From Candidatus Omnitrophota bacterium (GTDB lineage Bacteria > Omnitrophota > Gorgyraeia > Zapsychrales > Zapsychraceae): 64,000 nucleotides of DNA. The stretch spans positions 33,625-97,624 of the forward strand of contig JAJDCB010000009.1 in the NCBI GenBank assembly GCA_029261065.1, in the 5' to 3' direction. The notes beneath the pieces are model-generated. The model had not been told where the DNA came from, made no database searches, and saw only the letters and a program-made list of their open reading frames with translations. Positions 6,126-62,500 of the stretch are shown here, piece after piece (the stretch's first letter is position 1; each line of letters starts with the position of its first letter). Both the position numbers and the translations under genes were made by a program.

Positions 6126-6137
6126 AGCAAAAGAGAA

Positions 6138-6998: not shown

Positions 6999-7040
6999 CA
7001 GGGGAAGGAACCTCCAAAGTAAAACATATCAATTAATATG

Positions 7041-9011: not shown

Positions 9012-9016
9012 AGTAT

Positions 9017-10141
9017 TTACCTTTTCGTTTTATTTCGACTAAACATTTTACCTGGCCATTGACGCACCAAACGTTTGAGTTCTAATTGAAACAATAATGC
9101 CGTCGTAATGGAACTATCCTTTTGATAAAGACTCACAAGCTCATCAATGTGTACGGGTGTATCTGATAAACCTCTAAGCAACTCTTTTTCTGGATCTGTT
9201 AACGTAATTTGAGATTTTTGTTTTTCTGATTTACTCACTACTGCCGTTTTTTTAGGTTTAGCTATTTGTTGTCGGGCTGCAACTTCTTCTAAGATATCTT
9301 CCACACTACTAACAAGGATCGCCCCTTGTTTAATTAAGGCGTTAACGCCAAGTGCTGCTGGGTTATCAATTTTTCCTGGAATGGCATAAACATCGCGACC
9401 TTGATCGAGAGCAAAATCAGCTGTAATCAAAGCACCACTCTTTTTTGCTGCCTCTACAACTATAACACCACAACTTAAGCCACTAATGATTCGATTTCGA
9501 CGCGGAAAATTATAAGCAAGTGGCGGCATTTGCATAGCAAACTCAGAAATTACGGCACCATTATTAACAATATCATTCATGAGTGTTTTATTTTCAGGAG
9601 GATACACATGCGTAAGTCCGCATCCTAAAACGGCAATGGTAGGAGATGAAGATTTTAAAGCCCCTCGGTGGGCTGCGGTGTCAATCCCACGAGCCATCCC
9701 TGAAACAATGGTAAATCCATAATCAGATAACTCTGTGGCAAAACGTTCACACGTATTAAGACCATAAAGAGAGGCTCGTCTTGAACCAACCATGGCCAAA
9801 GCCTTCTCAAATTTAACGTTTAATGTCCCTTTGATATAAAGGACCAAAGGGGCATCAGCAATTGTTTTTATGCAGTCTGGATATTCGGAATCGATTAAAG
9901 TTACAACAGATACACCCTCACTCTTCATCAAGGCGTATTCTCTCTTAAGAAAATCCTCTTTATCAAAAGTTAGAATTTGCTCAACAGCACAAGAAGAAAT
10001 AACATTTTCTAGCTCCCACTCTTCTTGCGTTAAACTAAAAATTTTAGAGGCGCTACGAAATTTAAGAAGAAGCTGTAACTTTTTTCGGTTACCAAGTCCT
10101 GTGATTGCGTTTAAAACTAAAAGATATTCGTTTTCACTCAT
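9017..10141 (-). CDS. dprA: DNA processing protein DprA/Smf
   Basis: 374 aa with an N-terminal SAM-like region and a Rossmann-like DprA core (...GMARGIDTAAHRGAL...). It lies immediately upstream of topA, as in many bacteria. Confidence 0.8.
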   Translation of the reverse strand: MSENEYLLVLNAITGLGNRKKLQLLLKFRSASKIFSLTQEEWELENVISSCAVEQILTFDKEDFLKREYALMKSEGVSVVTLIDSEYPDCIKTIADAPLVLYIKGTLNVKFEKALAMVGSRRASLYGLNTCERFATELSDYGFTIVSGMARGIDTAAHRGALKSSSPTIAVLGCGLTHVYPPENKTLMNDIVNNGAVISEFAMQMPPLAYNFPRRNRIISGLSCGVIVVEAAKKSGALITADFALDQGRDVYAIPGKIDNPAALGVNALIKQGAILVSSVEDILEEVAARQQIAKPKKTAVVSKSEKQKSQITLTDPEKELLRGLSDTPVHIDELVSLYQKDSSITTALLFQLELKRLVRQWPGKMFSRNKTKR

Positions 10142-29221: not shown

Positions 29222-30157
29222 ATGCCTCAAAAAATAAAACTAGCCTTGATCGGTATCGGACACCTAGGAGCCATCCACCTTAAAGTCCTTCAGGAATTGC
29301 TGGATCACGTGGAAATCGTGGCCATTTGCGACATTAAGGAAGAACGCACCCAGCGTTTGGCTAGCCACTACAATGTGCCTGTTGTTGATCATTACACAAA
29401 ACTTCTAGGAAACGTTGATGCTGTTGATATTTGCGTACCTACGGAAAACCATTTTGAAGTGGCTGAATTCTTCTTAAAAAATAACGTTCACACCTTTGTT
29501 GAAAAACCTATTTCAAAAACACTTAAAGAAGCCGATGAATTGATTGCCTTGTCTGAGAAAAATAATGTCAAACTACAAGTAGGCCATGTCGAACGTTTTA
29601 ATGCTGCCTTTGAATCCATCAAACATTTTACGCATAACCCGATGTTTATCGAATGTCATCGGCTTAACAACTTCCCTAATAGATCTTTAGATGTTGGCGT
29701 TGTCATGGATTTGATGATTCATGATATCGATATCGTTTTAGGTATTATCAAATCCCCCATTGCAGATATTCAAGCGGTGGGTGTTAACGTTTTAACGCCC
29801 TTAGAGGATATTGCAAGCATTCGCTTAACTTTTGAAAATGGCTGTGTGTGCAATTTAACAGCCAGTCGTATTTCTGAAGAGGTGATGCGGAAAATTCGAA
29901 TCTTTCAAAATGATATGTACATCTCTCTCGATTATGTTAAACAAGAAGCTTTTATTTATAAAAAACATGGAACTCAAATTTCCAAACACAGCCTGCCCAT
30001 TGAAAAAGAACAACCCTTAAAAAAAGAATTAAATCATTTTCTAGAGTGCATAACACTTAATCAAAACCCAATCGTTTCCGGCCGTGAAGGTCGAGAGGCT
30101 TTAGATGTTGCTTTACGCATAAGCGATCTTATATGGAGCAAGAAAAACAAATCATAA
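29222..30157 (+). CDS. Gfo/Idh/MocA-family NAD(P)-dependent oxidoreductase (possible UDP-GlcNAc 3-dehydrogenase GnnA-like)
   Basis: 311 aa. It has the N-terminal Rossmann motif KLALIGIGHLGAIH and the EKP motif (FVEKPIS). Its 3' end overlaps the lpxB start by 25 nt, which indicates translational coupling. Confidence 0.7.
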   Translation: MPQKIKLALIGIGHLGAIHLKVLQELLDHVEIVAICDIKEERTQRLASHYNVPVVDHYTKLLGNVDAVDICVPTENHFEVAEFFLKNNVHTFVEKPISKTLKEADELIALSEKNNVKLQVGHVERFNAAFESIKHFTHNPMFIECHRLNNFPNRSLDVGVVMDLMIHDIDIVLGIIKSPIADIQAVGVNVLTPLEDIASIRLTFENGCVCNLTASRISEEVMRKIRIFQNDMYISLDYVKQEAFIYKKHGTQISKHSLPIEKEQPLKKELNHFLECITLNQNPIVSGREGREALDVALRISDLIWSKKNKS

Positions 30158-31284
30158 TTGTCGCCGGAGAAGCATCTGGTGATATGCACGCAGCTCATCT
30201 CGTTGAGAAGATTAAAACACTTGATCCTCAAATAAAAATTGCTGGGTTCGGCGGACCTCAACTGCAAGCAAAAGGCGTGGAAATTTATCAGGATCTCACC
30301 AAAATTGCTGTCGTTGGTTTCTTTGAAGTCCTTAAACACTATCCCCTTTTTAAAAAAGCGTTTAATCTTATCCTTAAAAAAATAAAGACAACAAAACCTA
30401 GTGCCGTTATTCTCGTTGATTATCCAGGGTTTAATTTACGGCTAGCCAAAGAAATAAGAAAGATCAAAGGCTTAAACACTAAAATTATCTATTACATAAG
30501 CCCTCAAGTTTGGGCGTGGAAACAAAAACGTGTGGCGGACATCAAAAAATATGTTGATGAGATGCTTGTGCTTTTTGAATTTGAGAAAACTTTTTATAAA
30601 CGTTTTAATGTTAATGCAACCTTTGTCGGCCACCCTTTACTTGAACTGATGGATGTGAATCTAAAAAAGGAAGAATATTTAAAAACAACGAAATTACAAG
30701 AATACAAATTAACGATTGGACTCCTTCCTGGTTCTCGAAAAAAGGAAGTGGAACGCCATCTTCCTATAATGTTAGAGACAATAGAGGTTCTTAACAAAGA
30801 ATTTCCTATGCTTCAATTTCTCATCATCCAAGCCCCTACAATTGAGACAGAATTCATTGAATCTCTTCTCCCCCAAAATACACGACACCTAGCGCTAGTT
30901 CCTCAATCTTATAATGCCATCAATGCTTGTGATCTTTGCATGGTTGCCTCTGGGACGGCAACGCTTGAGGTTGCGATATTGGGAAAACCCATGGTGGTTA
31001 TTTATAAAACATCCCTATTAACCTTTGCACTTGCCAAATGGCTTATTAAGATTCCCTACATAGCCATGGTTAATGTCATCGCCGAGCGTAAAATTGTACC
31101 AGAATGTGTTCAACATCAAGCGAGACCTTCAGTCATTGCAAAAGAACTTAAAGCCATTTTCACAGATGAGATAAAAATTGCGGAAATCAAATCTGATTTG
31201 GGTGAGGTAAAAAAATCTTTGGGAGATGGTGGGGCAAGCGAGCGTGCCGCTCGCGCTATACTTAAAACAATTTCAACAACTTAA
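30133..31284 (+). CDS. lpxB: Lipid-A-disaccharide synthase
   Basis: 383 aa. It reads IIIVAGEASGDMHAAHLVEKIK...FGGPQLQAKG, the canonical LpxB N-terminus, and is a GT19. Confidence 0.9.
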   Translation: MEQEKQIIIVAGEASGDMHAAHLVEKIKTLDPQIKIAGFGGPQLQAKGVEIYQDLTKIAVVGFFEVLKHYPLFKKAFNLILKKIKTTKPSAVILVDYPGFNLRLAKEIRKIKGLNTKIIYYISPQVWAWKQKRVADIKKYVDEMLVLFEFEKTFYKRFNVNATFVGHPLLELMDVNLKKEEYLKTTKLQEYKLTIGLLPGSRKKEVERHLPIMLETIEVLNKEFPMLQFLIIQAPTIETEFIESLLPQNTRHLALVPQSYNAINACDLCMVASGTATLEVAILGKPMVVIYKTSLLTFALAKWLIKIPYIAMVNVIAERKIVPECVQHQARPSVIAKELKAIFTDEIKIAEIKSDLGEVKKSLGDGGASERAARAILKTISTT

Positions 31285-40439: not shown

Positions 40440-43400
40440 TTAACCCAGATGTACATCAATACGTTTTAATTTACCATCACGAATGTCTCCAGAATACGGT
40501 GATGGAATAAATGCGCCTTTAAGGAGAACAGGTTTCTTTTTTTGAGAATACGTTAGCTCTATGTCCTGAACGCTAACCGCAGATTTCCCATAAGTATTCT
40601 TCTTTTTAGGATTGTGATAAACAACAAGAGTTGATCCTAAAAATACAAAAGCATAACAATTCTGATCAATTTTCTCTTTAAAGCACTCCCTTTTAATATC
40701 ATAAAATTCAACTGTTGATTTCTGTGTTGTAAATAGCCAACTCGGTAAAGCCGGCACAAAAGACAGTACAAGCTCTTGATTCGCATTAAGGGAAAATGGA
40801 TTTAAACCCACATTCATCAGCAACCACATGTGCAAAAATTCTGCCGTACTCCCCGATAACCGCGCAACAAACCCTTGTCCATGTAACGAGGCATCTTCGT
40901 GGGCTGAACTAACAATAAAAGAAGAATTCTCCAAAGTACTTCTTCCATAAACAGCTGGATCTAAGGATGAGACTAACACATGTTTAAAGTTATCAAAAAA
41001 CTCCTCGTACAACCCTTGTCTCAGAACTTCCAACATAAACTTATATTCCATGTGAAGCCAGACCGATTCGTTCTCCAACCAACCTGAAGGAAAAATGCGG
41101 CAACGGCCGATTTCATCAGTCTCATTCGCTAAATTCTCGTTAACTTTATACATTTTAAGTTTTTTATCAAACAAGGGGCTACGACGCACTTGACTATATA
41201 ACTCTTTTGCCTCCTTAACATCCTTCGCCACTCTTAAAGCATGCACATAACCTTCTAAAAATAACGGCAGATTATGACGTTTAAATTCCAGTGGACGGAC
41301 AAAGGGCTGCTCTTCATTCTGACTTTTATCTAATTCTTGATATTTCGGAACTTGATGATAAAAGTACGTTGATAAAAATCCTTCTTTCGTAAAACCAGCA
41401 TCAATAGAGGTATTAATTTTCTCGATAACACCAATTAAAAACGTCTTAATCGCAGCAACCGTCATTTGCTCCTCGACTCCATCAACACCTAAACGAATCC
41501 GATTACGATAATGCTCTTTAATATCATTCGATTTTTGCCAGTAAGCTTTAGGATCCTGTTTTAAAGAAAGTAATGGACTTAAACCTGTGACAAACGTATA
41601 CAGCTCTTCAAACAAAGAAAACTGATGATTATCGGCCAATCCAAGTTGTTTTAAAGACTCTAATAAAAACTGACTATACCTTTTGATTTCAATTGTCTCA
41701 GAAATTGAAGATCCTAGAAGGCCAGGCAAGCCATTTAAAGAATCATACCAATTGGGTTTATCCGCCTCCATCTCCACCCCAACACCGCTTGGATCGAGAG
41801 ATGCGACTTTATTAGCAATAAGACATAACAACTTACAAACTAAATGCGTGTAATAAACCCCACCTTCTCCATTTTTAACCTTGAGACGATTTCCCTTTAA
41901 TTTCGCACCAATGGCCATCGTTCCGTCTTTAACAGATTCATATTGCCTCACTCCACGCTCAGTTAAAATATAACGCTGATCGCGAGGTAACACATAATGA
42001 TCGTTATGATAAAAATAAAACTCTTCCTTCTCCATTAATAAATGCCGTAACTTCTCGGGATAAAGAGCTAGATAACTTTCTAATAAATCCAGATTATACG
42101 TCCAATGATCAGACCAAAATCCCTCCCCATGATTTGAGAGTTCTTGTTTCTTAGAACCTTGTAAAACACGTGATAAAAATTCTTGCTGTGTTACTTTTAG
42201 GGAAATCGATTCCTGCGCAATAAAGGTGAGCAGCTCTCCGGGAAGAAACGCTTCTTCTAAGATATTTGTTAACTTCTTATGATCTGATTTTTCAACACAT
42301 TGATTGAGCACGGTCTTTACGTATTTTTGATCTTGAATCTTAAAAGAAACCCCTTGAACAACTAATGGATTATAACCATCAGCTTGAGACAAATTTAAAA
42401 AGGTCATAATATGACTATCACCAACCAATGGGTTAAACCAAGCATCGTTGCGTCGATTTTGATTCACATCACGATAATTTCCATTACCTTGGGAGTAATA
42501 ACTGGCCGCGACATAAAAATAATTATAATCGCGTTCCAAATCCCCATGCTTTCGACTATAGACATTAAAGGCCACATCGCCCTGTTTCGTTCCTATCGTG
42601 ACAGGAAGCCCACCTCTTAAAATATTATCCAAAAATGTCGATGAACAATATTTATCAAAGGTATCCAAAGAACTCTTTGTTAAGCAATAATTTTTAACCT
42701 CATCAATAATCCCTTTGTTGACCTTACTTTTTCTGTCTATATAATTCTTTTGAGTCGCCTGCTTAACCATATCATTGAGGGCATCAACGTCATGAGCGTA
42801 ACCTAACATCGATACGACTTCCTTCGTTGCTTTAGGCTTTAATGTTGCCTTAAAATAGGACATCGCAGAAGGGGAACGATTGCTCGTTTGTTGCACTTTT
42901 GGAAGAGAAAATGATTTTTCTATAAACTGTTGAGGACAGACAAAGTCTTGAGCTGCACCAAAAACGCAAGCATTCTCAACTATTGGTTCGAGCAGTTTAT
43001 TTTTTCCGCCTTGAGGATCAAAACTAAAATAAAAATTTCCCTCCTCAATAGGTGTCACCTCGGGCTTATCCGAGACCTCTACATTGAGTTGGTAATAAGC
43101 TGCCTTTTTCTTTAAATTGCGCACTTTAACCCACGCCTCAACGGTGCGTGAAATATTCTTATTTAAAGCATCCGTTAATCCGTAAGGTACAATGACAGGC
43201 AACCCATCTATCACTTCAATATCTTTGGCTTGTTTGCCCACGTTTATAATACTAACTCGTCGAATAAGTGCTGCGAAAGGTTCTTCAGCCAACGTAAAAT
43301 AATTAACGCGAACAATTATTCCCAGATCTAAATTTTCTTCCTCAAGCGTTAAATCATGCGCACTCATCGAAAGCTTTACTTTCTTTTTATAGTCTGTTCC

Positions 43401-43712
43401 CTCTAGATGATTTTGGAAAGGTTCATAGTAACGTGTTTTTGGCCCTATCTTTACTTTGATAAACGTGCGAAATCCTTGAAGAGCGGTTTGCCGATAAGCC
43501 TTATTCGCCGGCTGAAACTCCATGATGGCTTTATCCTTGGCCTCAATACCAAAGCTTGTCACACACTGACCTCGATTAACATAGAATACCCACATCGGAA
43601 TACCCCACAGGCCAGCTATCCCTGGAAAAAAATTGCTAAATAGTTTAGCTTGATTATAGTTCTCTATATTAAAACACCCGTTTTCATCTAAAGTATATTT
43701 TGGATTATTCAT
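40440..43712 (-). CDS. Large cytoplasmic protein, probable (alpha/alpha)6-barrel glycoside phosphorylase/hydrolase-like enzyme (GH94/GH65-like; tentative)
   Basis: 1090 aa with no signal peptide. The N-terminal region resembles the N-domains of GH94 phosphorylases (short conserved aromatic-rich segment PMWVFYVNRGQ). The mid-region motif GNGNYRDVNQNRRND resembles the catalytic RD..QD region of GH94-type enzymes. This assignment is made by eye only. Confidence 0.35.
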   Translation of the reverse strand: MNNPKYTLDENGCFNIENYNQAKLFSNFFPGIAGLWGIPMWVFYVNRGQCVTSFGIEAKDKAIMEFQPANKAYRQTALQGFRTFIKVKIGPKTRYYEPFQNHLEGTDYKKKVKLSMSAHDLTLEEENLDLGIIVRVNYFTLAEEPFAALIRRVSIINVGKQAKDIEVIDGLPVIVPYGLTDALNKNISRTVEAWVKVRNLKKKAAYYQLNVEVSDKPEVTPIEEGNFYFSFDPQGGKNKLLEPIVENACVFGAAQDFVCPQQFIEKSFSLPKVQQTSNRSPSAMSYFKATLKPKATKEVVSMLGYAHDVDALNDMVKQATQKNYIDRKSKVNKGIIDEVKNYCLTKSSLDTFDKYCSSTFLDNILRGGLPVTIGTKQGDVAFNVYSRKHGDLERDYNYFYVAASYYSQGNGNYRDVNQNRRNDAWFNPLVGDSHIMTFLNLSQADGYNPLVVQGVSFKIQDQKYVKTVLNQCVEKSDHKKLTNILEEAFLPGELLTFIAQESISLKVTQQEFLSRVLQGSKKQELSNHGEGFWSDHWTYNLDLLESYLALYPEKLRHLLMEKEEFYFYHNDHYVLPRDQRYILTERGVRQYESVKDGTMAIGAKLKGNRLKVKNGEGGVYYTHLVCKLLCLIANKVASLDPSGVGVEMEADKPNWYDSLNGLPGLLGSSISETIEIKRYSQFLLESLKQLGLADNHQFSLFEELYTFVTGLSPLLSLKQDPKAYWQKSNDIKEHYRNRIRLGVDGVEEQMTVAAIKTFLIGVIEKINTSIDAGFTKEGFLSTYFYHQVPKYQELDKSQNEEQPFVRPLEFKRHNLPLFLEGYVHALRVAKDVKEAKELYSQVRRSPLFDKKLKMYKVNENLANETDEIGRCRIFPSGWLENESVWLHMEYKFMLEVLRQGLYEEFFDNFKHVLVSSLDPAVYGRSTLENSSFIVSSAHEDASLHGQGFVARLSGSTAEFLHMWLLMNVGLNPFSLNANQELVLSFVPALPSWLFTTQKSTVEFYDIKRECFKEKIDQNCYAFVFLGSTLVVYHNPKKKNTYGKSAVSVQDIELTYSQKKKPVLLKGAFIPSPYSGDIRDGKLKRIDVHLG

Positions 43713-43756: not shown

Positions 43757-44539
43757 TTAATAAGGATTTTTGGCCTTTCGAAAAAGATTGTAATACCCAG
43801 ATAATTTCATTAAAAGGATATCAGCCCTATTATCTTTGTCGCTAAAGCGCACCCGATTGATTTCAAAGACATCTTTATTTTCACGATCAAACCCTCTATT
43901 AGTCGCCAAAGCCGATTCATAACCTGCCTTTTTAACAATTTCTTTAATCTCGTCACTAAAGCCCCCAACAGGATAAGCAAAATGCTTTATCTCAACCCCC
44001 AGCTTCTTCTCTAAGACATGCTTACTTTCTATGATTTCATACCGTTGCAAATCAACTGACGCATCCGGTAAATATACATGTGTTCGTGAATGGCTTCCAA
44101 AAGAAATTCCTCCAGCCATCATCTCTTTAATCTGTTTTAGAGATAGATGTCCATCCATATCAACAAAATCTGAAGGAATAAAAATGGTGGCGGGGAATTG
44201 ATATTTTTTTAGGATTGGCCATGCGTAGGTGTAATTATTTTCATACCCATCATCAAAGGTGAGGACAACCGTTCTTTTTCCCAAGGGTCTATTCTCTTTG
44301 ATCGCTTGAATCAAAGCATCTAAGGTAATAACTTGATAGCCTTTTTCATGTAGAAAAGCCATTTGATTTTCAAAATTTTCTGGGGTAGTTGTATTCGCTT
44401 TTTGTTGTTCGGTAGGTTCAACATGATGATACATAACGACGGGGACGACATAATTATACGATACCCAAAGTGTAAAAAAACTCACTAGGATAACGATGAG
44501 AACAAAGGTTATGGCAAAAAATTTCTTTATAGCGTGCAT
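43757..44539 (-). CDS. Polysaccharide deacetylase (NodB homology domain), membrane-anchored
   Basis: 260 aa. It has an N-terminal TM and the motifs VVLTFDDGYENN ... SHSRTHV ... YPVGG, the NodB motif series. Confidence 0.8.
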   Translation of the reverse strand: MHAIKKFFAITFVLIVILVSFFTLWVSYNYVVPVVMYHHVEPTEQQKANTTTPENFENQMAFLHEKGYQVITLDALIQAIKENRPLGKRTVVLTFDDGYENNYTYAWPILKKYQFPATIFIPSDFVDMDGHLSLKQIKEMMAGGISFGSHSRTHVYLPDASVDLQRYEIIESKHVLEKKLGVEIKHFAYPVGGFSDEIKEIVKKAGYESALATNRGFDRENKDVFEINRVRFSDKDNRADILLMKLSGYYNLFRKAKNPY

Positions 44540-44540
44540 A

Positions 44541-44990
44541 TTAAAGGCTCGATAAATTTTTCTTAACTAATTGACTGACAAGCTTGTTATCTGCTTTACC
44601 ATCCACCTTAGGTAAAAGCGCCTTCATTACAAGCCCCATATCTTTCATGGAACTGGCCTTTGACTCTTGAATGGCCTCTTCAACTAACTTTTGAACCTCA
44701 GCTTCTGCCATTTCCTCTGGCAAATACCCTTTAAGCAAATCCATCTCACCTTGTTCTTTACTAGCTAATTCTTCACGGCCGCCCTTTTTATACATCTCAA
44801 TAGAATCTTGCCTTTGTTTGATCTGCTTTTTTATGATCGCGACAACGTCTTTATCTTCAAGAGAATCCGCTTTTAATTCAATAATCTTATTCTTCAATTG
44901 GGCTCGTAAAAAATTCAACGTTGTAGAAACATCCTTTTTTCGTGCTTTCATCGCTGCAATATAATCCGTATTTATTTGCTTCTCTAACAT
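44541..44990 (-). CDS. yqeY: GatB/YqeY domain protein
   Basis: 149 aa. It reads ...YIAAMKARKKDVSTTLNFLRAQLKN... and ...GKADNKLVSQLVKK..., typical of YqeY. Confidence 0.75.
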   Translation of the reverse strand: MLEKQINTDYIAAMKARKKDVSTTLNFLRAQLKNKIIELKADSLEDKDVVAIIKKQIKQRQDSIEMYKKGGREELASKEQGEMDLLKGYLPEEMAEAEVQKLVEEAIQESKASSMKDMGLVMKALLPKVDGKADNKLVSQLVKKNLSSL

Positions 44991-45084: not shown

Positions 45085-45318
45085 CTAGTCTTTTCCTTCT
45101 TGGATCAAAATTTTCTTCTCTCGCGATTTATGCCCCGAAATGATCTGAATTTGGCGCTTTTTTGCTCCTAAGTACTTTGCTAGCAACTGAATAACAGCCT
45201 CATTAGCGCTGCCATCAATTGCCGGTTTACAGACATAAACCTTTAATTGGTTCTTCTCTTCCTTAATATGCGCTTTTTTGGCATTCGGGACGACTTTAAT
45301 ATTCAGCTCACAACTCAT
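45085..45318 (-). CDS. yggU: DUF167/YggU family protein
   Basis: 77 aa. It reads LNIKVVPNAKKAHI...VCKPAIDGSANEAVIQLLAKYLG, the YggU signature. Confidence 0.75.
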   Translation of the reverse strand: MSCELNIKVVPNAKKAHIKEEKNQLKVYVCKPAIDGSANEAVIQLLAKYLGAKKRQIQIISGHKSREKKILIQEGKD

Positions 45319-45344
45319 TTACATTATCCTAATTTCATAAAGTT

Positions 45345-45436
45345 CCTGTAATCTAGTAATCTGAGCTATCCCGCGCGAGTTACGAGCAAAGCGAGTATGT
45401 CTGAGCTCGGGATAGCTCAGATTACTAGATTACAGG
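45345..45436. repeat. Perfect 29-bp inverted repeat with 34-nt spacer (92-nt hairpin-capable element) in the ygjP-yggU intergenic region
   Basis: The left arm at 45345-45373 is CCTGTAATCTAGTAATCTGAGCTATCCCG. The right arm at 45408-45436 is its exact reverse complement CGGGATAGCTCAGATTACTAGATTACAGG. No flanking direct repeat (TSD) is evident. Confidence 0.9.
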
Positions 45437-45455
45437 ACGAGCTTCCCTATTATAG

Positions 45456-46226
45456 TTAAGGCAACACCATATCGTAATGATGTTTCTTCAGCCATGCTTT
45501 GGCATCCAAATATTGTGGATAAAATTTTTTCACTTGATTCCAAAAACGTTTGGAATGATTCGGCACAATTAAATGGCATAATTCATGAACGACCACATAA
45601 TCAATGACCTCCATGGGTGCTAAAATAATTTGCCAATTAAGATGAATGGTCTGTGTATTATAGTCACAATTGCCCCATATTCTTTTATGCGCACGAATAG
45701 CGATTGTCTTTGGGGTGACATTAATAATACGAGCATAATAAAAAAGCCTTCCTCCTAAAACTTCTTGCGCTTGCTGACGATACCATTGAATCATTTTGGC
45801 TTTAGTCAGCTGCTTTATTTTTTCTTCACTAAGAGATTCGGGTACGCTTACAAGCCACCTTTGTCCATCAAACTCAATTTTCGCTCTCTTAGCGGATGAG
45901 GACCTTACATTAAGAGTGCACTTCTCTCCCATAAACAAAAAATTATTCCCGTCTATAAAGTCTCTTGATTGTAATTGGGATTGAATATCTTTGGCCTGTT
46001 TAACTCGCGTGATAATCCAATGTTCTTTTTCCTTCATAAACATTTGGATCTCTTTCATCTTCGAGCTAAAGGGTACAGAAACGCTTAAATTGGCTTTCTC
46101 ATCAATGGAAATCGTTAAAGTTCTTCGATGAGAAGAACGCTTTAATAAAAATTCAAGGTCTCCTTGGGAGGAACGAAAAAAAGATATCTCTTTAGTTATT
46201 TTTTTGGGACGTTTTATTCGAGGCAT
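45456..46226 (-). CDS. YgjP-like metal-dependent hydrolase (DUF45/WLM/SprT-like zinc metallopeptidase)
   Basis: 256 aa. The C-terminal region reads VVVHELCHLIVPNHSKRFW (HExxH zinc site), the typical YgjP family end. Confidence 0.75.
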   Translation of the reverse strand: MPRIKRPKKITKEISFFRSSQGDLEFLLKRSSHRRTLTISIDEKANLSVSVPFSSKMKEIQMFMKEKEHWIITRVKQAKDIQSQLQSRDFIDGNNFLFMGEKCTLNVRSSSAKRAKIEFDGQRWLVSVPESLSEEKIKQLTKAKMIQWYRQQAQEVLGGRLFYYARIINVTPKTIAIRAHKRIWGNCDYNTQTIHLNWQIILAPMEVIDYVVVHELCHLIVPNHSKRFWNQVKKFYPQYLDAKAWLKKHHYDMVLP

Positions 46227-46270: not shown

Positions 46271-47458
46271 TTAATCTATGATTTCTACATCAATTGTAAC
46301 ATTTCGTGGCTTGGCAATATCCGTTTGAGGCTTTACTTCTGATTCCTGAGGAACTCCTGCATCATATTTGGCTTGATTAACTTTGATCTCGACGCCATTT
46401 TTTACTAAATAACCATTATTGCCTAAAACAAGACGAATACGATCCAACTCTTTTAAGGCTGACTTTCTGGCCTGTTGAGCTTCTTTTTTAAAATGCTTAA
46501 TTTTTGTTTTAACCGTTCTCATCCGACCTTCATACAAATTCATTAAAACTTTAGCTTCTTCAGTGTTTTTAACATCACCCGCATAAAACCTCATCTGATC
46601 TTGCAAAACAGAAATTTCTAAATTCAGCTCCTTATTTTTTTGTTGAAGCAAAGATATGGTTTGCTCTAGTTCCATGCGTGTTTCAGATATTTGATGCTCA
46701 TTAAGATTTTTGACTGTTTCTAGATCATTAACCAATGATGTATTCCCAGATTTTGCTTGCGCTAACATCTGTTCTGTTTCAGCTAAAATAGACTTCGTAG
46801 ATTCTAATTCTTCATTCAAAGAAACCAACATACTTTCGCTTTCATTATAAAGCTGCTTTGTACTTTCTAATTCGCTTGTCAAATTAGTTACCATCAACTC
46901 ACTCGCATAATAACGATGGGAATAACTCATTGTTAAGGCGGCCTGTTGATCGGAAACGGCAAACAATTTATGATTGGCCAAATTAATATTCTTATACGTA
47001 TCCTGCCCCGTCCAAGTCATCCAAGCAGCAAGCATGGCTGCTGCAAAAATCAAAAGAACGCCTAAAAGGGCGGTAAGCTTTTTCTTATTACTAAAACTTA
47101 ATAATCCTTTTTGAATCCGTTGTCTAAGCTTAGCTGATATGTATTCGGAAGGTTCTACAAACTTAACACCACAGAGATTGCGTTGTTGAAAAACGCCCTG
47201 TTTTCTTTGCCAGACTAATCGAGCTGTTTGAGGAATAAAATTGCGAGGACCTAAATCGGTATCAAAAGATAAAACACACTTATTGGTTTGATCAAGGGCT
47301 TCATCTATCTCTAGAAGCATCCCTGATGTGCTGATATTACGAACTCTAGCCCTTCCCGATTTCGACGTCTGAGGAATTCGCCAGGCAATACGCTTATTTT
47401 CATTTATGCGTAAGTTTTCTCGCGTATCGCTAAAGACCCTATTCGTTGTTGTCACCAT
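46271..47458 (-). CDS. Membrane-anchored PilZ-domain protein with long coiled-coil region
   Basis: 395 aa. The N-terminal ~120 aa contain KRIAWRIP...RARVRNISTSGMLLEI, consistent with the PilZ RxxxR ... (D/N)xSxxG c-di-GMP-binding motifs. A TM follows (LTALLGVLLIFAAAMLAAWMTW), then ~200 aa of heptad-like coiled coil. Confidence 0.6.
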   Translation of the reverse strand: MVTTTNRVFSDTRENLRINENKRIAWRIPQTSKSGRARVRNISTSGMLLEIDEALDQTNKCVLSFDTDLGPRNFIPQTARLVWQRKQGVFQQRNLCGVKFVEPSEYISAKLRQRIQKGLLSFSNKKKLTALLGVLLIFAAAMLAAWMTWTGQDTYKNINLANHKLFAVSDQQAALTMSYSHRYYASELMVTNLTSELESTKQLYNESESMLVSLNEELESTKSILAETEQMLAQAKSGNTSLVNDLETVKNLNEHQISETRMELEQTISLLQQKNKELNLEISVLQDQMRFYAGDVKNTEEAKVLMNLYEGRMRTVKTKIKHFKKEAQQARKSALKELDRIRLVLGNNGYLVKNGVEIKVNQAKYDAGVPQESEVKPQTDIAKPRNVTIDVEIID

Positions 47459-54820: not shown

Positions 54821-57800
54821 TTAATAATGTTGTTCAACACCATTTAATGCATCAGCAATCATATCGGCACGGGATTTATTATCAGGCAACGATAGTTCTT
54901 GCCGTTGAGGTATTGATTTAAAACTTGAAGGTTGTTTATATGTCCTTTTAGGGGCAACACGACCTTTCTTCTTACGAAATTTAGATTCTCTGATAAGTGC
55001 TTTTTCACATTTACTAATAAATTTATCTATCTTTTTATAATTTGGTTTAATATCACCTACCTCAAGAAAAACATTTTTAGCCTGATAAAACTCCTTATGC
55101 TCATACAGACTGATGCCCTTGGCATATAATATTTCTAAATTTACTTCCAACTCCTTGCGTATCTTTTCACGTTCTTGACGAAGTCTTTCTTGTCGTTCAC
55201 GTACCAAACGATCTAACTCCATTTGTTTTTCTTTCTCCAAAACAGAACGTCTCTTTTTCTCTAATTTAAGCTGTTCTGCCCGAGAAATTCGCAATCGTTC
55301 TTCTTTACGTTTCTCAAATTTTTCTGATACAGGAGCATCCAACTTCTCTTTAAACTTCTCAACCCTTTTAAGGTTAATCTTTTCTCTTTTATCACCATTT
55401 AATTTAGCAATACTTTTAATTGTCTTTACTTTTTCTTTAGCCAATTGCGCCTCCTCTCTTCTAATCTGAGCTTCCAAGTCTTCTGTATCAGCAGCCTTAA
55501 ATAAATCAATAGGCGAGGTGCCACTTTGGTTCATTTTTGATTCTCGTATCAGCATTATTTTCTTTCGTTTCGCCTCATCCTTAGCAATTTCTTTTTGAAA
55601 TTTTCTACGATCCTTACTCATTCGTTTACGCATACGTTCTAAATACTTTTCAGAGAAATCGCCTTTGGCCAACAACGACTCATACTTATTAAACTTGGCT
55701 TGAGCCAACTCTTTATTATCAGAACGATATAATACCATCCCTTCTTTATAGACTTGAGAAATTTCCCTTTTTAATCGATTACGAATTTCTTTTTCCTTAA
55801 TCTTAGCTATTCGTTTGGCTTCCTTTTCCTTAGACAATCTTTTCTTTTCTGCCTCTTTGTTCTTTAATTCTTCCTCATGCTTCTTCGCCTCTAATTCCAA
55901 CTCCTGCTTTTTCTTCTCAAATTCCAATTTTCTTAACTGTTCAACTCGGGCCAATTCTTCTTCCTTTTCTTTTAATTCCATCTCTTTCTTTAACAAACGT
56001 CGATTAGTCTCTTCTTCCTTTTTCTTAAGCTTTGCTTCACGTTTATCATAAGGATATTTTAATTTTGATTCATTATCCTCTTTTGCACGCCATTGATCAT
56101 TTTCTTTTTTAGCTTTTTCTTCCAATTCTTGGTCATTTTTAACCATTTGTTCTTGCACATCATCCTTTTTTGATTCTTTTTTTAGAGCTTCTCTCTTTAA
56201 CTCTTTTACATTTTCAATGCGTTGCGCCTCAAACGCCTCATCTGCCTTAGCCAACATTCGTTCACTACGAAGAACGTAAGCTTTAGCTGACTTGAATCCT
56301 GGGTGGAGGGCATCTATGGTAGAAAATTTAACCTTCGCCTCTTGATAAAATCCATCTTCAAACAAAGACAAACCTTCTTCATAAAGTTTCTCAACCTCAT
56401 CCTGCCATAATTTTTTGTGTTCATTATCTTTTGAGCGCAGATGTTTATTTATTACCTTCTGATTTTTCTTGTATTCTTTTTGACGTTGCCTTTCTAATCG
56501 GTTAACTTTATTGGACGTTGCCCTACGTTTGACTTCTGCCTTTTCACCATCTATATCTTGTTTAATGCGTTTTTCATCGTATTTCGAAAGCACTTTATCT
56601 TCATCTGAAACTTTTTCCTTTTCCTGAGCATGTTTATCTTCCTGATTAGCTTTAACTGCTAAAACACCGCCTGCTTTGACCGCTTCACTCTTCATACGGG
56701 CAGCCTCTTTTTCTAATCTTAAAGCTTCCTTTTCTAAATTTTTAACTCTTTCCTCTTCCTTTTTACGTGCATTTTGTTCAGCTAATTGAAACTCACGCTT
56801 TTTCTTAAGATCTTCCATCTTCATACGGGCAGCCTCTTCTTCTAATCTCAAAGCTTCCTTTTCTAAATTTTCAACTCTTTCTTCTTCCTTTTTACGCGCA
56901 TTTAATTCAGCTAATTGAAACTCACGCTTTTTCTTAAGATCTTCCTTTTTTCGCATTTTTTCTTCTTCTACGTTTTCTTTTTCTTCTATTTTAATTTCTT
57001 TTCTTAAATCTTTCTTTTGTTGGGCCTTTCTCCATTTTGCACGCCGTTTTCTTTCACGCTTAACTTTGGCAATCGTCTCACGTTCTCGACGAAGCTCATC
57101 TTTAAATTCTTGATTACGTTTTCCACTTAATTCACCTAAATGTTCCTCTTTCGCTTTTAATTCGGCCACCCTCTTATCTTGTTTTTTATGCCACTCATCC
57201 TCATCAAACTTTTCATCACCTTGTTCTTCTGTTTTATGAAGCAATGAAGCATCAACATCTTTTAACTCCAAAGGCTCCTTTGCTTTGGCAGCCGAATTTA
57301 CAATTTTTCTTTCTTTCGTTTCAAGTTGTTTCGTGATGCGACCTAAGTACTTTTCTGTAGAACGATAATCTTCCTTCATAGCATTAATTTCCGTAAACTT
57401 ATCACGAGCCAAACCATATTCACCTTGACGATAAAATTCTTGAGCTTGCTTATAAAGCATTTTTAACTCATCTTTTTTAGAGACAATTTTTTCATCATTT
57501 TTCTTCGCAGAAGATCTCTTAACCTTAACGGCCTTTCTTTTCTTTTTCTTAACAATCTTTGCCTTGACCTTAGGTGAAGAAGAAACAGGCGTAATACGCT
57601 GAGATCCGTTAATAGCGCTATCCTCCAAACGTGACAAATAACTTAAGGCATCCTTGTATCCAGGATAAAGAGCCTCAAGTTGAATAAATTTTATTTTAGC
57701 CTGAGAATATTGTTTTTGTTTATAAAGATTTACGGCCTCTTTATAGCGCGTGTCTGCATCTTTTGTTAATTGCTCCTTACGATTTTTAACGGCACGATCA

Positions 57801-59428
57801 ATCGCGTTATCTTGATAATCGCTCTTTACGACCCTTATAGCTGGCTTATCTTTTGCTAAATATTTTTCAATTTTACTTAAAAAACTATCTGTCTTCTTAT
57901 AGTCTGGAAATATACGTTTAAGCTCCTGAAATTTTACTTTTGCCTGCTTGTATTCTTTCTTCTTATATTTACTCACTGCAGCTTTATAGACAACACCCGC
58001 TTGCTTTTCTTTATGCGCTTTAAGTTTATCGGCCACATCTTTGGCCTGATCACTATCAGTAGCATCTTGATCGACATCTTGAGCTACCTCTTTTTTTAAA
58101 CGCTTAATTTCGCTTTTTTTACTTTTTTTACTTTTTTTGCTTTTTTTGCTTTTTTTGCTTTTTTTGATTTTAGCTTGCTTCAACTGCCTTTCTTTTTTCA
58201 ACTCTTGAGCAAAACTTTTCAAATCATCGCTTTCTCTTACCCCCAAAATCTTATTTAATTTTGCAAAATATTTTGCTGTATTTTTATAATCCGGATAAAA
58301 GTCTTCCAATTCATCAAACCGCTTCTTAGCCTTTTCGTAATCTTTACGCTTAAATAATTTTATCGCAGCTTTATAAAGAAATTCAGCCTCATCTTCTGCC
58401 CGCATTTTTTCCCGCATAGCTTTCTGCTCTTTATATTTTTTATTTAATGCCTTTTTTTCTTTACTAGATAACTTAACGATTTCATTGCCATCTTCATCAA
58501 AACGATCTGCGTGTTTTTCTCGATATTTTCTAAAATTCTCAATATCTCGATCAACACGTGATAAATATCTAATAGTCGACTTATAATTTGGTAATATCCA
58601 CTCAACTTCCTGAAACTTTTCTTTGGCCAATTCATATTGGCGTGTCTTATGTAGAGAGACGGCTTGACGATAGGTTTCCTCTGCTTGATCTTCTAGCTTT
58701 TGTTCTCTATCCTTTTCTCGCTTTAATATTTCAGCTTTCCACTTTTGTTTATCACTACGCCGCTCCACAGCTTCTTGCTGTAATTTTTTCTCAATCAAGA
58801 CTTCTTGTTCTTTATCAATTTCACGCCCAATTAACATCATATAACTACGCGTTGCTTTATGATCAGGAAACATGTCTTCTACATTTTCAAACTCTTTTTT
58901 GGCTGCCATCCATTTTTTCTGTTTATATAGTGACACTGCCGACTGATAAACCTCTTCAACCTCTTTTGAGCTATAACCTCGCTCAACTTCTAAACGTTTA
59001 ATTTTTCGTTTTTCTTCTTTATTAAAAGCAATTTCTAGTTTTTTCGCTTTACGCGCGCTTTCATTTAAATAAGCCTTCATCTCAGGGTGCTCTGTAATTT
59101 TAATCGCATCTTCCCATAATTTTTGGGCCTCTTCAAACTTACCTTCTTCGTATAAACGCATTGCTTTTTCGTAATACTCCCGTGCCTTTTCTTCACGCTG
59201 TTGATTACGTCTTAAACGTGCTTGATTCTTCAACTTATCATTTACAGACTCAATTTTCTTCTTAGATTTTTTAATAAGGGCTTTAAGATTAAGAACATAA
59301 CCCTCGCTTTCTTTTTGTTCTTTAAAGGGGATGTCCTCCTCGGCGGAAGATAGAGTTGGTGGTGCGCTTAAAAAAAGGCTGGCGCTTAGAAGGCTAATAG
59401 TGAGGTGCTGTTTAAATAGCTTTTGCAT
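54821..59428 (-). CDS. Secreted 1535-aa Lys/Glu-rich coiled-coil protein with ten dispersed BamD/YbgF-like TPR hairpin units
   Basis: It has a signal peptide (LTISLLSASLFLSAPPTLSSAEE). A ~42-aa unit of the form Yx(A)vxLYkxKxYxxAKxKFxEvxxxxPdYKxTxxYLxRIxxxL occurs ten times (e.g. YKEAVNLYKQKQYSQAKIKFIQLEALYPGYKDALSYLSRLE; YKAAVSKYKKKEYKQAKVKFQELKRIFPDYKKTDSFLSKIEKYL). The units are separated by highly charged K/E/R-rich predicted coiled coil. The gene also contains a 129-nt tandem duplication and a (KKS)6 tract. Confidence 0.7.
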   Translation of the reverse strand: MQKLFKQHLTISLLSASLFLSAPPTLSSAEEDIPFKEQKESEGYVLNLKALIKKSKKKIESVNDKLKNQARLRRNQQREEKAREYYEKAMRLYEEGKFEEAQKLWEDAIKITEHPEMKAYLNESARKAKKLEIAFNKEEKRKIKRLEVERGYSSKEVEEVYQSAVSLYKQKKWMAAKKEFENVEDMFPDHKATRSYMMLIGREIDKEQEVLIEKKLQQEAVERRSDKQKWKAEILKREKDREQKLEDQAEETYRQAVSLHKTRQYELAKEKFQEVEWILPNYKSTIRYLSRVDRDIENFRKYREKHADRFDEDGNEIVKLSSKEKKALNKKYKEQKAMREKMRAEDEAEFLYKAAIKLFKRKDYEKAKKRFDELEDFYPDYKNTAKYFAKLNKILGVRESDDLKSFAQELKKERQLKQAKIKKSKKSKKSKKSKKSKKSEIKRLKKEVAQDVDQDATDSDQAKDVADKLKAHKEKQAGVVYKAAVSKYKKKEYKQAKVKFQELKRIFPDYKKTDSFLSKIEKYLAKDKPAIRVVKSDYQDNAIDRAVKNRKEQLTKDADTRYKEAVNLYKQKQYSQAKIKFIQLEALYPGYKDALSYLSRLEDSAINGSQRITPVSSSPKVKAKIVKKKKRKAVKVKRSSAKKNDEKIVSKKDELKMLYKQAQEFYRQGEYGLARDKFTEINAMKEDYRSTEKYLGRITKQLETKERKIVNSAAKAKEPLELKDVDASLLHKTEEQGDEKFDEDEWHKKQDKRVAELKAKEEHLGELSGKRNQEFKDELRRERETIAKVKRERKRRAKWRKAQQKKDLRKEIKIEEKENVEEEKMRKKEDLKKKREFQLAELNARKKEEERVENLEKEALRLEEEAARMKMEDLKKKREFQLAEQNARKKEEERVKNLEKEALRLEKEAARMKSEAVKAGGVLAVKANQEDKHAQEKEKVSDEDKVLSKYDEKRIKQDIDGEKAEVKRRATSNKVNRLERQRQKEYKKNQKVINKHLRSKDNEHKKLWQDEVEKLYEEGLSLFEDGFYQEAKVKFSTIDALHPGFKSAKAYVLRSERMLAKADEAFEAQRIENVKELKREALKKESKKDDVQEQMVKNDQELEEKAKKENDQWRAKEDNESKLKYPYDKREAKLKKKEEETNRRLLKKEMELKEKEEELARVEQLRKLEFEKKKQELELEAKKHEEELKNKEAEKKRLSKEKEAKRIAKIKEKEIRNRLKREISQVYKEGMVLYRSDNKELAQAKFNKYESLLAKGDFSEKYLERMRKRMSKDRRKFQKEIAKDEAKRKKIMLIRESKMNQSGTSPIDLFKAADTEDLEAQIRREEAQLAKEKVKTIKSIAKLNGDKREKINLKRVEKFKEKLDAPVSEKFEKRKEERLRISRAEQLKLEKKRRSVLEKEKQMELDRLVRERQERLRQEREKIRKELEVNLEILYAKGISLYEHKEFYQAKNVFLEVGDIKPNYKKIDKFISKCEKALIRESKFRKKKGRVAPKRTYKQPSSFKSIPQRQELSLPDNKSRADMIADALNGVEQHY
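56691..56948. repeat. Tandem duplication, 2 x 129 nt (~95% identical), inside the 1535-aa gene
   Basis: Copy 1 at ~56691-56819 and copy 2 at ~56820-56948 both begin TTCATACGGGCAGCCTCTT. They encode two near-identical 43-aa units (EDLKKKREFQLAE(L/Q)NARKKEEERV(E/K)NLEKEALRLE(E/K)EAARMK). Confidence 0.9.
58113..58166. repeat. Simple sequence repeat: six tandem 9-nt units CTTTTTTT(A/G), each with a T7 run, encoding (KKS)6 on the minus strand
   Basis: The sequence 58113-58166 reads cttttttta cttttttta ctttttttg ctttttttg ctttttttg ctttttttg. It lies inside the 1535-aa gene (KIKKSKKSKKSKKSKKSKKSE). Confidence 0.9.
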
Positions 59429-59456
59429 AAATTAATAATTCGTAGTAAACATGTCG

Positions 59457-59474
59457 TCCCCGCGAAAGCGGGGA
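59457..59474 (-). terminator. GC-rich stem-loop (6-7 bp stem, GAAA tetraloop) in the AT-rich spacer between the two giant genes
   Basis: The hairpin is tCCCCGCgaaaGCGGGGa. A second imperfect GC hairpin lies at ~59516-59532 (TTCCGCttccGCGGGAA). On the minus-strand transcript no strong U-tract follows the stem, so it is a weak intrinsic-terminator candidate or an RNA stability/processing element. Confidence 0.4.
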
Positions 59475-59579
59475 TCCATTTATAATAATATATATAGATA
59501 TAGTTATTATGAGGTTTCCGCTTCCGCGGGAATAACACTTTTCTATTAGTACACTTTTAATATATCTATATTAGTGACC

Positions 59580-62500
59580 TCATTCTACCATAGGCCCTTG
59601 AACCTCTTCCAGAATTTTCTCCAGTATTTTCTTTGCTTTATCATACTGTCCATTCTTATAATATTGGTCAGCTAGAGTGCTCATTTCTTTAAGTTTTTCT
59701 TCCTTATCAATTTGACCCTGAATATATTGGGCGGCCTCAGCAAACATCATTTGACCTGCCATAATAATATCGCGATAGATCTGTTGAGATTCTTCTAAAC
59801 GGCCGTCCTTGTGGGCTTTTTGAGCTAAGACAAAATAACTATTTAATTCATAGAGGATCGGACTATCATCTCGTGATAACTCATCATCAACCATAATCCA
59901 AGCCCAATAGGCGATTTTTTCTTGTAACCAGCGCTGTTTATTGCGATCTTTTTCTTCCTGCGTTTGATCATAAAGACTTCCGGTAATGCGCATAAACGGC
60001 CCTTCAGAGGCATAATCTAGATGAGTGAGATCATCATCAAATTCTGTAAAATTGTAACCAATTCCAATTTGAGCAAACTCACCTACACGTCTGGCTCCCT
60101 CAATGAGGAATCCACGTTTTTGGTCTCGGGCTTCTTCAACATCCAAAATACGGAATTCACTTCCTATCGTCCAATCGCTATCAATTTTATAATTCAATCG
60201 ATGAATCATTAACCATGTATGTGTTTTTGTAAAATCAAAGCCTGTGACTTTTTCTTCCCCAATACGATACGCAAACTTTTCTGTAACTTGCCATTTATCT
60301 GTTAAATCATAAATCACATCAACAGCCATAACATGCGCGCTTTCTTCTTCAATATCAGATTTATCCTCCTGACCTTCTGGAGAGCGTTCTTCAAGATAAG
60401 TGTAACGACTTAAGATATTTAAGCGATCATGATAAATAGGACGATAGGCAGCACCAATAATTAACTCTTTATGTTTCGCCTCATAACGGCCTGCTGTTTC
60501 ATTTCGTGTCTTAGAAATTTCTATTTTACTAAAGACGGTAAGTTCAGAAGAAAGCTTGCCTTCGACAGAGCTAAAAACGAGATACTGTCTTTTATTTTCT
60601 TCACCATCATCAAAACGCGCTTCTAATTTTGTTGAACTGCTAAGCGCTTTTCCTGTTTCTTCATCTGTATGAGAATAACCCATTCCTAAACTCACCACAT
60701 CACGATCAGATTCAGAACCATCATGACTTTGAACTTCTCCTCGCTCATAAGAACCTGAAAAAGCCCAACGATCATCAATGTCCCCTGATAACCCATAGAT
60801 GTTTGAACTCGTAATATCTTTATCACCTTCTGAATACGCGCGTGTTAGAGACCCTTCTAACTTCTTACCGTTCTTCTCACGAATAAGACTGTATGTCGAA
60901 TCGGTTGTATTGGCCTCAGGTGTTTGTCCAAAGGCACGATTGGTGGCCACACGTAAGTCTTGTGTTAATCTTGAACTTGAACCAAAACTCATAGCACTTG
61001 ATCGACCCTCCGTTTTTGAATCGGTTAGATCAAACTGGCTGGTTGTTGTAGTTTTGTCATTAATTTGAGAGTCGCCACCAAAACTTAACGTTGTTGAACT
61101 ATCATCAACAGACTTAGCCATCTCAATATTGGTATTAACAGAGGTCTTCTCATCAACTTGTTTGGATGCTCCTACTCCAAGAGTTGTGGTCCTTTGACCT
61201 GCTTTATCTGTAGTAACTGAAGTTCGCACCTCAACCTCATCACTAATTTTAGCTTCAGCTCCCATGGTAGATGTTTTCTCTACATTGCCAGCTTTATCCG
61301 TAGTAATGGCATAACCACCCGTTAAGCTTAACCGTTCTGAGACATCAGCTGTTACATCTAGCTCTGTTGCTGTTCCTGATGTTGCGATAACCTCTTTGGC
61401 TTCGATGGTTATACTTTCTGTTGGTTTTACTATGGCACCAAGTGTTGTTTGGTTATTCTTCGCACCATGAATAGTCATTTGCTGCTCTATGGAAAGTTCT
61501 AACTTATCGCTTACGGTATAATCTCCACGGATAGCCAAAGAATCTTCAATTTCTTCAGACTGACTGTCAAACTTATCAATACGCGATTTTGTCACTTGAC
61601 GTTGGTATTCCCCTGTTAATTTTAAGTCGCGAATCTCATGGACAACCTGAACGATTGAAGTCGATGTCTTAAACGCTCCTAATTGAAGTTGTGTTTGCGC
61701 ATTGCCATCGTGAATCAGGCTTTGAATATCATGACGGGCACTTAACCGTGTCTTTTCAGCTAAATCATAAACGACCTCAAATCCTGAAAGCTCTTTGCCT
61801 TGCTGAGATGTCGTAGCTGCTGATGAGAAGTCATTTCCTATCCATTTATAATAGCTGCTCACACCAAGTCTGTTAAATAATCTAGCATCCCCCTTAATAC
61901 CATAGGCCGATCCAGATGAAATTTCGCTGGTTTTTAGTTCTGCAAAGGATAAACCACCATCCGTTGATATAAACGTGCCTTGCGATTCTGAAACCGTTTC
62001 GGCGTATTCAGCCGTAACAGAGGCATCTTCACTTAGTCGTACAGTCACATCCGTACCCCGCAATTCGTAATCTGTTTGATCTTGGGTTTCACTCACATAA
62101 GTGACTCCAGCAATCACGTTATCTGAAAGTGCCTGTCGGACACGTGTACCGGCGGTGGATTCATCAAGTTTTTCATTCACTTCATACTGGTAATCTGTAA
62201 TCACATAAACAAGATTTCCGTCTAATAAGTCATTAGAGATGATGGAATAAGTATCCACAAGGATTGGTACAGGTCTCCAGAACAAGATACGACCACTGTT
62301 ATAATCCATTTCATAGTCAGCCCCTTCTTTCATTTCTCGAGAAGAAACAACTAAACCTGTAATCTTATCTCTTACTTCAATCAAAACTTTATCAGAACCT
62401 TCAATGACATCCTTATGTTTTAAGAAGTAGAGCGAACCACCCGTTGCTAAAAACTCATTATGCGCACTCTTTTGTTGTGTGCGGGCATGGAAGGCAACAA

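Follow-up and report, generated by a model that had tools for sequence, protein, structure and literature searches.

The window analysed here is a stretch of 64 kb (36.9% GC) from an Omnitrophota metagenome-assembled genome. On its minus strand it carries an operon in which the genes for a YgjP-like metallopeptidase and a DUF167/YggU protein are separated by a long perfect palindrome. The genes of this region, assigned from Pfam matches and the ORF table, are as follows.

46271-47458, minus strand: PilZ-domain protein (Pfam/ORF table)
45456-46226, minus strand: YgjP-like metallopeptidase (PF01863), 256 aa, the upstream cistron (Pfam E = 4e-54)
45085-45318, minus strand: DUF167/YggU (PF02594), 77 aa, the downstream cistron (Pfam E = 2e-23)
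44541-44990, minus strand: YqeY (Pfam/ORF table)
43757-44539, minus strand: polysaccharide deacetylase (Pfam/ORF table)
40440-43712, minus strand: 1090-aa protein without a Pfam domain (ORF table)

Genomic context of the ygjP-yggU junction

An earlier note on this DNA placed the palindrome between a ygjP-like gene and yggU, and the Pfam matches bear this out. Both genes are intact: the C terminus of YgjP (...DMVLP) agrees with the family consensus, and the match of YggU covers positions 2-76 of the 76 in the Pfam model. Thus, the extra DNA sits exactly between two undamaged genes. Where the source of a YgjP homologue is named, it is almost always a metagenome-assembled genome of Omnitrophota (Omnitrophica). 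One database protein is identical to the YgjP of the window and the next best is only 57% identical, indicating that no close relative has been sequenced. The operon order PilZ-YgjP-DUF167-YqeY-deacetylase-1090-aa protein is conserved across Omnitrophota contigs.

Gene order is kept over a block of more than 20 kb (window positions 36812-59428) in two distant members of the Omnitrophota (loci L119 and L120), whose YgjP proteins are 46-57% identical. This block consists of the genes for a giant TPR protein, a DsbH-like protein, AsmA, PilZ, YgjP, DUF167, YqeY, the deacetylase, the ~1090-aa protein without a Pfam domain, MoxR, DUF58, and two successive VWA proteins. In one population variant (L127, positions 6806-10082), the gene for the domain-less protein of ~1095 aa is called as two ORFs (527 and 524 aa), which suggests a frameshift, a stop codon, or an assembly error.

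Pfam matches of 46 window ORFs point to housekeeping functions: lipid A synthesis, enzymes of the shikimate and branched-chain amino acid pathways, translation factors, a BatA-D/MoxR cluster, AsmA, and DsbH. No transposase, RAYT, or reverse transcriptase is found among these 46 ORFs, a set that has the giant ORFs at 54821-59428 and 59580-63920 outside it. The sole recombinase found in the window is encoded by a XerC/D-like gene (6138-6998), located beside topA and dprA and 39 kb from the palindrome.

The GC skew of the plus strand is strongly negative across the whole window, ranging from -0.12 to -0.26, and the long ORFs all lie on the minus strand except for two (29222-30157 and 30133-31284). 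The uniform skew indicates that the window belongs to one replichore, with its genes co-directional with replication, and the lack of a switch places both the replication origin and the terminus outside it.

The palindrome and its immediate surroundings contain the following features.

45438-45455, minus strand: non-palindromic flank of 18 nt from the ygjP stop codon to the palindrome, CTATAATAGGGAAGCTCG
45408-45437, no strand: right arm of the perfect 30-bp repeat (inverted-repeat search)
45400-45407, no strand: TCTGAGCT, an 8-nt duplicate of arm positions 45360-45367 that abuts the right arm (read from the sequence)
45374-45407, no strand: non-palindromic spacer of 34 nt between the arms, 53% GC, folding weakly alone, with GCGAGT twice in direct orientation
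45348-45363, no strand: tandem 8-mers GTAATCTA and GTAATCTG in the left arm, mirrored in the right arm
45344-45373, no strand: left arm of the perfect 30-bp repeat, TCCTGTAATCTAGTAATCTGAGCTATCCCG (inverted-repeat search)
45319-45343, minus strand: flank of 25 nt from the palindrome to the yggU start codon, ACTTTATGAAATTAGGATAATGTAA

The two arms are 100% complementary over 30 bp. This adds one base on each side to the perfect 29-bp repeat (45345-45436, 92 nt) of the earlier note, so that the whole palindrome measures 94 nt (45344-45437). With one mismatch allowed, the inverted repeat reaches 33 bp (45344-45376 and 45405-45437). The palindrome has a GC content of 0.47 (window, 0.37; adjoining 25-nt flank, 0.20), and its stem one of 43%. 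Stop codons interrupt all three frames of the arm (TAA at 45349, TAG at 45354, TAA at 45357, and TGA at 45362); a frame check finds the arm stop codons on both strands, with each arm stopping in three of three frames. There is no ORF of at least 20 aa inside the palindrome.

Two further sequence features may bear on the transcript. The duplicate next to the right arm could form an alternative local hairpin, TCTGAGCT-CGGGAT-AGCTCAGA, of 8 bp with a 6-nt loop, which in a minus-strand transcript would precede the formation of the full stem. An AGGA motif at 45330-45327, 8 nt 5' of the yggU ATG and within the 25-nt flank, represents a putative Shine-Dalgarno-like motif for yggU.

The earlier note described the palindrome as very unlikely to arise by chance, with a stem far longer than that of a terminator, no U-tract, and no target-site duplication. 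All four statements agree with the results. A search of the window for 30-mers with up to 3 mismatches recovers only the two arms, compared to 0.00 matches expected from 100 dinucleotide shuffles, which excludes a chance origin. The stem of 30 bp far exceeds the length of a terminator stem. On the minus strand, there is no U-tract 3' of the stem, where the tail reads ACUUUAUGAAAUUAGG (given as ACUUUAUG in the terminator test), and the terminator scan likewise raises no flag. At the edges (...AAAGT/TCCTG...CAGGA/CGAGC...), direct repeats are missing at every length, both at the ends and close to them, and a palindromic duplication is ruled out by the outermost paired bases, T...A.

The minus-strand RNA of the palindrome folds at -59.8 kcal/mol (z = -9.0), a value equalled by none of 200 shuffles, and its single-stranded DNA folds at -35.5 kcal/mol (z = -10.9). 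In a sliding fold of 110 nt over both strands of the whole 64-kb window (mean, -16.8; standard deviation, 5.9), the palindrome is the extreme and the most stable structure, with -63.0 and -59.7 kcal/mol. The runners-up are the tRNA cluster, at -44.7, and the intergenic segment 59441-59550, at -40.

This last segment is the second-best fold outside the tRNAs: either strand reaches -40 kcal/mol, and 59425-59585 has a z of -4.5. It lies between the genes for a 1446-aa and a 1535-aa protein and contains two GC-rich mini-hairpins, CCGCGGAAGCGG and CCCCGCTTTCGCGGGG on the minus strand, which in addition pair with one another over an AT-rich spacer, an arrangement like that of a REP doublet.

Related loci and searches for further copies

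The distance from the YgjP stop codon to the DUF167 start codon differs widely between the window and the orthologous loci.

Window: 137 nt
L120-129: 74 nt (fold z = -1.8, no significant structure)
L002: 26 nt
L119: 25 nt
L118: 4 nt
L039: 1 nt
L117, the closest relative: 0 nt
L037: 0 nt
L003-5: 0 nt

No long inverted repeat is found in the YgjP-DUF167 spacers of eight relatives. On this comparison of sequences, the palindrome is DNA gained in the source lineage, since the spacers of these eight relatives measure 0 to 74 nt and lack the hairpin, compared to 137 nt in the window. The search of related genomes proposed in the earlier note thus finds the palindrome absent from eight orthologous loci, an absence that the note had listed among the outcomes speaking against its proposal. 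A foldback sequence inserted specifically in this lineage, at a junction that is otherwise tight and probably translationally coupled, is what the evidence supports best.

One further locus (L006, positions 3835-3900 of a Logan contig from SRR20820735) has no DUF167 gene. Its YgjP-to-YqeY spacer of 217 nt contains, just 3' of ygjP, an unrelated long imperfect hairpin (GAACTTACGTTCCCCCACC...GGTGGGGTCCGTAAGTTC) with a fold z of -6.1, a second and independent one at the same operon junction.

Searches with up to 3 mismatches, with blastn-short, and with nhmmer reveal no second copy of the palindrome in the 64-kb window. The longest word that it has in common with the rest of the window is 11 nt, so that the surrounding 64 kb is not the source of any of its parts. 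There is likewise no second copy in 1.64 Mb of fetched loci. A scan of genome_contigs with the YgjP alignment, aimed at relatives, yielded loci that belong mostly to other phyla. Exact words (two from the arms and one from the spacer) have no match in the viral_contigs collection, and a 22-mer has none in genome_contigs, a collection that does not include the source locus itself. A blastn search of plasmid and phage records gives chance-level fragments only. In the metagenome_contigs collection, a 17-mer matches 30 loci, each through a single arm and with little extension, and these matches are judged to be due to chance. The earlier note considered a multicopy element and held that a single-copy state would speak against it; in all the sequence searched (the window, the fetched loci, and the public scans), the palindrome is single-copy.

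Eight of the 30 metagenome matches (L011, L015, L017, L018, L019, L020, L031, and L033) represent one conserved non-coding element from soil. It reads cgcaatctaacccaagTAATCTGAGCTATCCCGaaagcggcttggc..., followed by an apparent ribosome-binding site and an ATG, and has 18 to 22 nt in common with the arm, a likeness that is also judged to be due to chance. ARAGORN and Rfam scans that covered most of these loci detect no tRNA and no Rfam family at the 17-mer. One of the soil contigs (L019) contains an Rfam group I intron at 326-554, with 53.9 bits against a gathering score of 50.

Rfam models find only three tRNAs above the gathering threshold in the window, and membership of the palindrome in an Rfam family is rejected at the gathering score. 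In a permissive search of 45200-45600, the best models on the palindrome are miRNA hairpins, with 25 bits against a threshold of 69, and the others are weaker. A tRNA-derived origin was considered, as the arm holds GGGATAGCTCAG, which resembles a tRNA D-arm, and rejected: ARAGORN finds nothing there. No words are common to the palindrome and the three tRNA genes of the window.

Comparison with known palindromic elements

The palindrome displays several traits of MITEs, namely, perfect terminal repeats of 30 bp, a length of 94 nt, and no transposase ORF. A target-site duplication is missing (flanks ...AAAGT and CGAGC...), which speaks against mobilisation as a MITE by a DDE transposase. The earlier note had proposed a MITE or a REP-like repeat. 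The foreign origin implied by this proposal is supported by the eight loci that lack the palindrome, whereas the assignment itself gains nothing from the searches, which found no duplication or GTAG motif, no second copy in the sequence covered, and no transposase in the scanned window ORFs.

In Neisseria, Correia elements (CREE/NEMIS) are multicopy, with a TA duplication at their flanks. Similar to the palindrome, they are non-coding, intergenic units of ~100-150 bp with long terminal inverted repeats. They are co-transcribed with their neighbors, as the palindrome probably is, and they provide the closest model for how the palindrome would work. In contrast to them, the palindrome has one known copy, no TA or other duplication, and perfect 30-bp arms, and it belongs to another phylum. 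RNase III binds or cuts the hairpin of Correia RNA, and the expression of neighboring genes can be altered by these elements (PMC2649163; review, PMC10969869).

With REPINs, the palindrome shares the layout of two inverted units and a spacer in one symmetrical, extragenic hairpin of ~70-110 nt. A single REP is a short and imperfect palindrome that usually carries a conserved GTAG/CTAC tetranucleotide, and the REPIN mechanism is not expected to leave a target-site duplication. The palindrome differs in that its arms contain direct 8-mers only and no self-complementary part, that they lack GTAG and CTAC, and that no RAYT is encoded by the scanned ORFs of the 64-kb window. REPINs are hairpin-forming mobile units related to the IS200/IS605 family, in which a less conserved spacer lies between two conserved parts in inverted orientation; a genome contains tens to hundreds of them and encodes a RAYT (PMC3116915). 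With respect to duplication and sequence, the palindrome fits neither the Correia nor the REPIN class.

ERIC and SPRITE elements are small imperfect palindromes in transcribed intergenic DNA that change mRNA stability or termination (PMC10969869). They form multicopy families with a known consensus in Enterobacteria and pneumococci, whereas the palindrome has no match in plasmid and phage records. The palindromic elements of Rickettsia (RPEs) resemble it as short palindromic insertions in the compact genomes of an uncultured or host-associated lineage. RPEs are known for in-frame insertion inside genes. The palindrome of the window, in contrast, is intergenic and has stop codons in three of three frames of each arm on both strands, and a Rickettsia-type in-frame element was rejected on these grounds.

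Several other candidates were rejected. An attC site was considered for the ends TCCTGTA...TACAGGA, but attC stems are imperfect, with extrahelical bases, and the stem here is perfect; no IntI or cassette array is found in the scanned window ORFs. For a retron msr/msd region, the neighbors are YgjP and DUF167, and the scanned ORFs contain no reverse transcriptase domain. An inverton would have a segment of 34 bp without a promoter-like site, and the only recombinase is the XerC/D-like one at 39 kb. A dif site fails on its defining features. Outward promoters at the edges (ATTACA...GATAAT) were also dismissed: promoter-like sites occur at the shuffle rate (70, compared to 65.7 expected), so that these hexamers carry no weight.

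Origin and likely effect of the palindrome

Our tentative preference, held at a little under even confidence, is that the palindrome represents a miniature non-coding foldback element inserted into the ygjP-yggU junction without a target-site duplication. In style, such an element is most likely nearer to REPINs or IS200/IS605-derived hairpin elements than to MITEs of DDE transposases, and the present copy would be either recent or an orphan. We infer mobility from several features that fit such an origin: the precise insertion, the differing composition, the perfect arms, and the symmetric 8-mers. The mirrored tandem 8-mers may represent the layout typical of protein-binding ends, and the perfect pairing of 30 out of 30 positions indicates a recent origin or maintained pairing. 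Also counted in its favor are the gain relative to the related loci, the strongest fold of the window, the intact flanking genes, the precedents among Correia elements and REPINs, and the perfect palindromic insertions at two other Omnitrophota loci (L001 and L053, described below). Counted against mobility are the lack of a second copy in all the sequence searched, of a target-site duplication, and of a mobility gene in the scanned window ORFs. A full-text literature search returned nothing relevant on palindromic elements in Omnitrophota; if the palindrome is mobile, no other small foldback element would have been noted before it in that phylum.

Whichever its origin, the palindrome is probably co-transcribed with the operon, as the genes all lie on the minus strand and the cistrons of the relatives are abutting or coupled. 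The operon transcript would then fold into a perfect double-stranded stem of 30 bp. Translational coupling between ygjP and yggU would be lost, and yggU would have to be translated from its own putative ribosome-binding site, the AGGA motif of the new spacer. The long duplex would be a likely substrate of RNase III or a block to 3' exonucleases, so that processing and stabilisation could differ between the two parts of the operon. By analogy with the Correia and ERIC elements, RNase III processing, 3'-end protection, and uncoupling are all likely. Of the readings offered in the earlier note, the decoupling of the flanking genes by an RNA hairpin appears to be the most defensible as a consequence, because the insertion breaks the TAA-ATG junction seen in the relatives.

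If the palindrome is mobile, it would offer a clean natural example of a translationally coupled gene pair parted by an insertion with neither gene damaged, and a simple test bed for the effect of a long perfect RNA duplex on operon processing. A single-copy state would leave it a local curiosity without wider importance.

Unlikely, although by no means negligible, is an origin in place, in which a single-copy hairpin that is not mobile DNA arose or became fixed at the junction, e.g., through inverted duplication by template switching in an expanded spacer. Such a hairpin might have been retained because it serves the operon in processing, in stabilisation, or as a partial barrier to transcription. 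It would agree with the single copy in everything searched, with the missing duplication and the lack of a transposase nearby, and with a junction spacer that already varies from 0 to 74 nt among the relatives; the internal 8-nt copy of the arm at 45400-45407 looks like the trace of a local fold-back, and the unrelated hairpin downstream of ygjP in L006 hints at recurring or tolerated hairpins at this place. However, the arms and the spacer match nothing in the 64 kb, so that at least 64 nt of new sequence need a source, and the GC content of the palindrome is well above that of its flanks. In addition, 8 of 10 related lineages have no hairpin and abutting cistrons, so that no conserved need for one is evident.

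A site that acts as double-stranded DNA or as a cruciform (an operator, an invertible switch, a Xer-type or attC-type site, or the hairpin of a nicking enzyme) is improbable. The mirrored 8-mers GTAATCTA and GTAATCTG do look like repeated protein-binding half-sites, and the single-stranded DNA hairpin is very stable (z = -10.9). However, arms of 30 bp placed 34 bp apart are unlike known operators, the inter-arm segment of 34 bp is very short for a switch and has no promoter-like site, and the attC cores RYYYAAC and GTTRRRY are missing at the ends. All relatives lack the palindrome even though they keep the neighboring genes. The recombinase or regulator site suggested in the earlier note finds no support here, the sole recombinase being the XerC/D-like protein encoded 39 kb away (6138-6998).

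Less probable again, and in our view very unlikely, is an ordinary factor-independent terminator of ygjP. The hairpin directly follows the stop codon on the coding strand, but an AT-rich stem of 30 bp (43% GC) with a loop of 34 nt and no U-tract is not that of an intrinsic terminator, and the scan did not flag it; terminator-like sites occur in the region at the chance rate (13 found, compared to 12.5 expected). The TAA-ATG junction of ygjP and yggU in the relatives also implies a single transcript. That the palindrome is an artefact of the assembly or the library (a fold-back chimera, for example, or an adapter remnant) is hardly credible: the source is a metagenome-assembled genome and the sequence is found nowhere else, but both sides run collinearly into intact genes in a phylum-conserved order, in a fold-back chimera the upstream sequence would follow as its reverse complement, and to our knowledge the palindrome contains no recognisable adapter.

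Other palindromes in Omnitrophota

In 1.43 Mb of fetched DNA, which comes mostly from other phyla, Omnitrophota sequence accounts for all three of the longest perfect inverted repeats, the palindrome of the window being one of them. One of the other two (L001, positions 395-468; GCA_029261055.1, JAJDCA010000018.1) has perfect 30-bp arms and a 14-nt loop and is located at the start codon of miaA. The miaA ORF reads MKK-IGTDTFFQHNAQKKVSVP-IFFIIGPTAVGKS, with an apparent in-frame insertion of 54 nt (18 codons) ahead of the P-loop. Alignment to the Pfam IPT model begins only at residue 22. The other (L053, positions 6464-6516; Omnitrophica WOR_2 RIFCSPHIGHO2_01_FULL_52_10, MHGM01000004.1) has perfect 24-bp arms and a 5-nt loop. 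It is AT-rich within a GC-rich PabB/TrpE-like ORF (5962-7392), where it lies in frame in the linker between the Anth_synt_I_N and Chorismate_bind domains. Both palindromes have GGGACA...TGTCCC ends, in L001 within A/T runs, and as in-frame palindromes they resemble the behavior of RPEs in Rickettsia.

It is conceivable, if rather doubtful, that these two palindromes and that of the window are kin in kind, though not in sequence, and belong to an undescribed class of mobile perfect palindromes of Omnitrophota that insert without duplication. Under this reading, miaA and the pabB/trpE-like gene would each have gained 18 in-frame codons (54 nt) through their palindrome, and the unrelated long hairpin of L006 at the ygjP junction adds a third lineage. 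If true, Omnitrophota would host foldback elements both between and within genes, similar to RPEs and moved by an undescribed enzyme.

The contig with the miaA palindrome contains further repeats. In the spacer between hflX and a PilZ gene (L001, 2689-2784), GGGCATGATAAATC is present three times, with two copies in direct and one in inverted orientation, and a 15-bp inverted repeat is found at 6121-6244. This genome seems to be rich in intergenic repeats.
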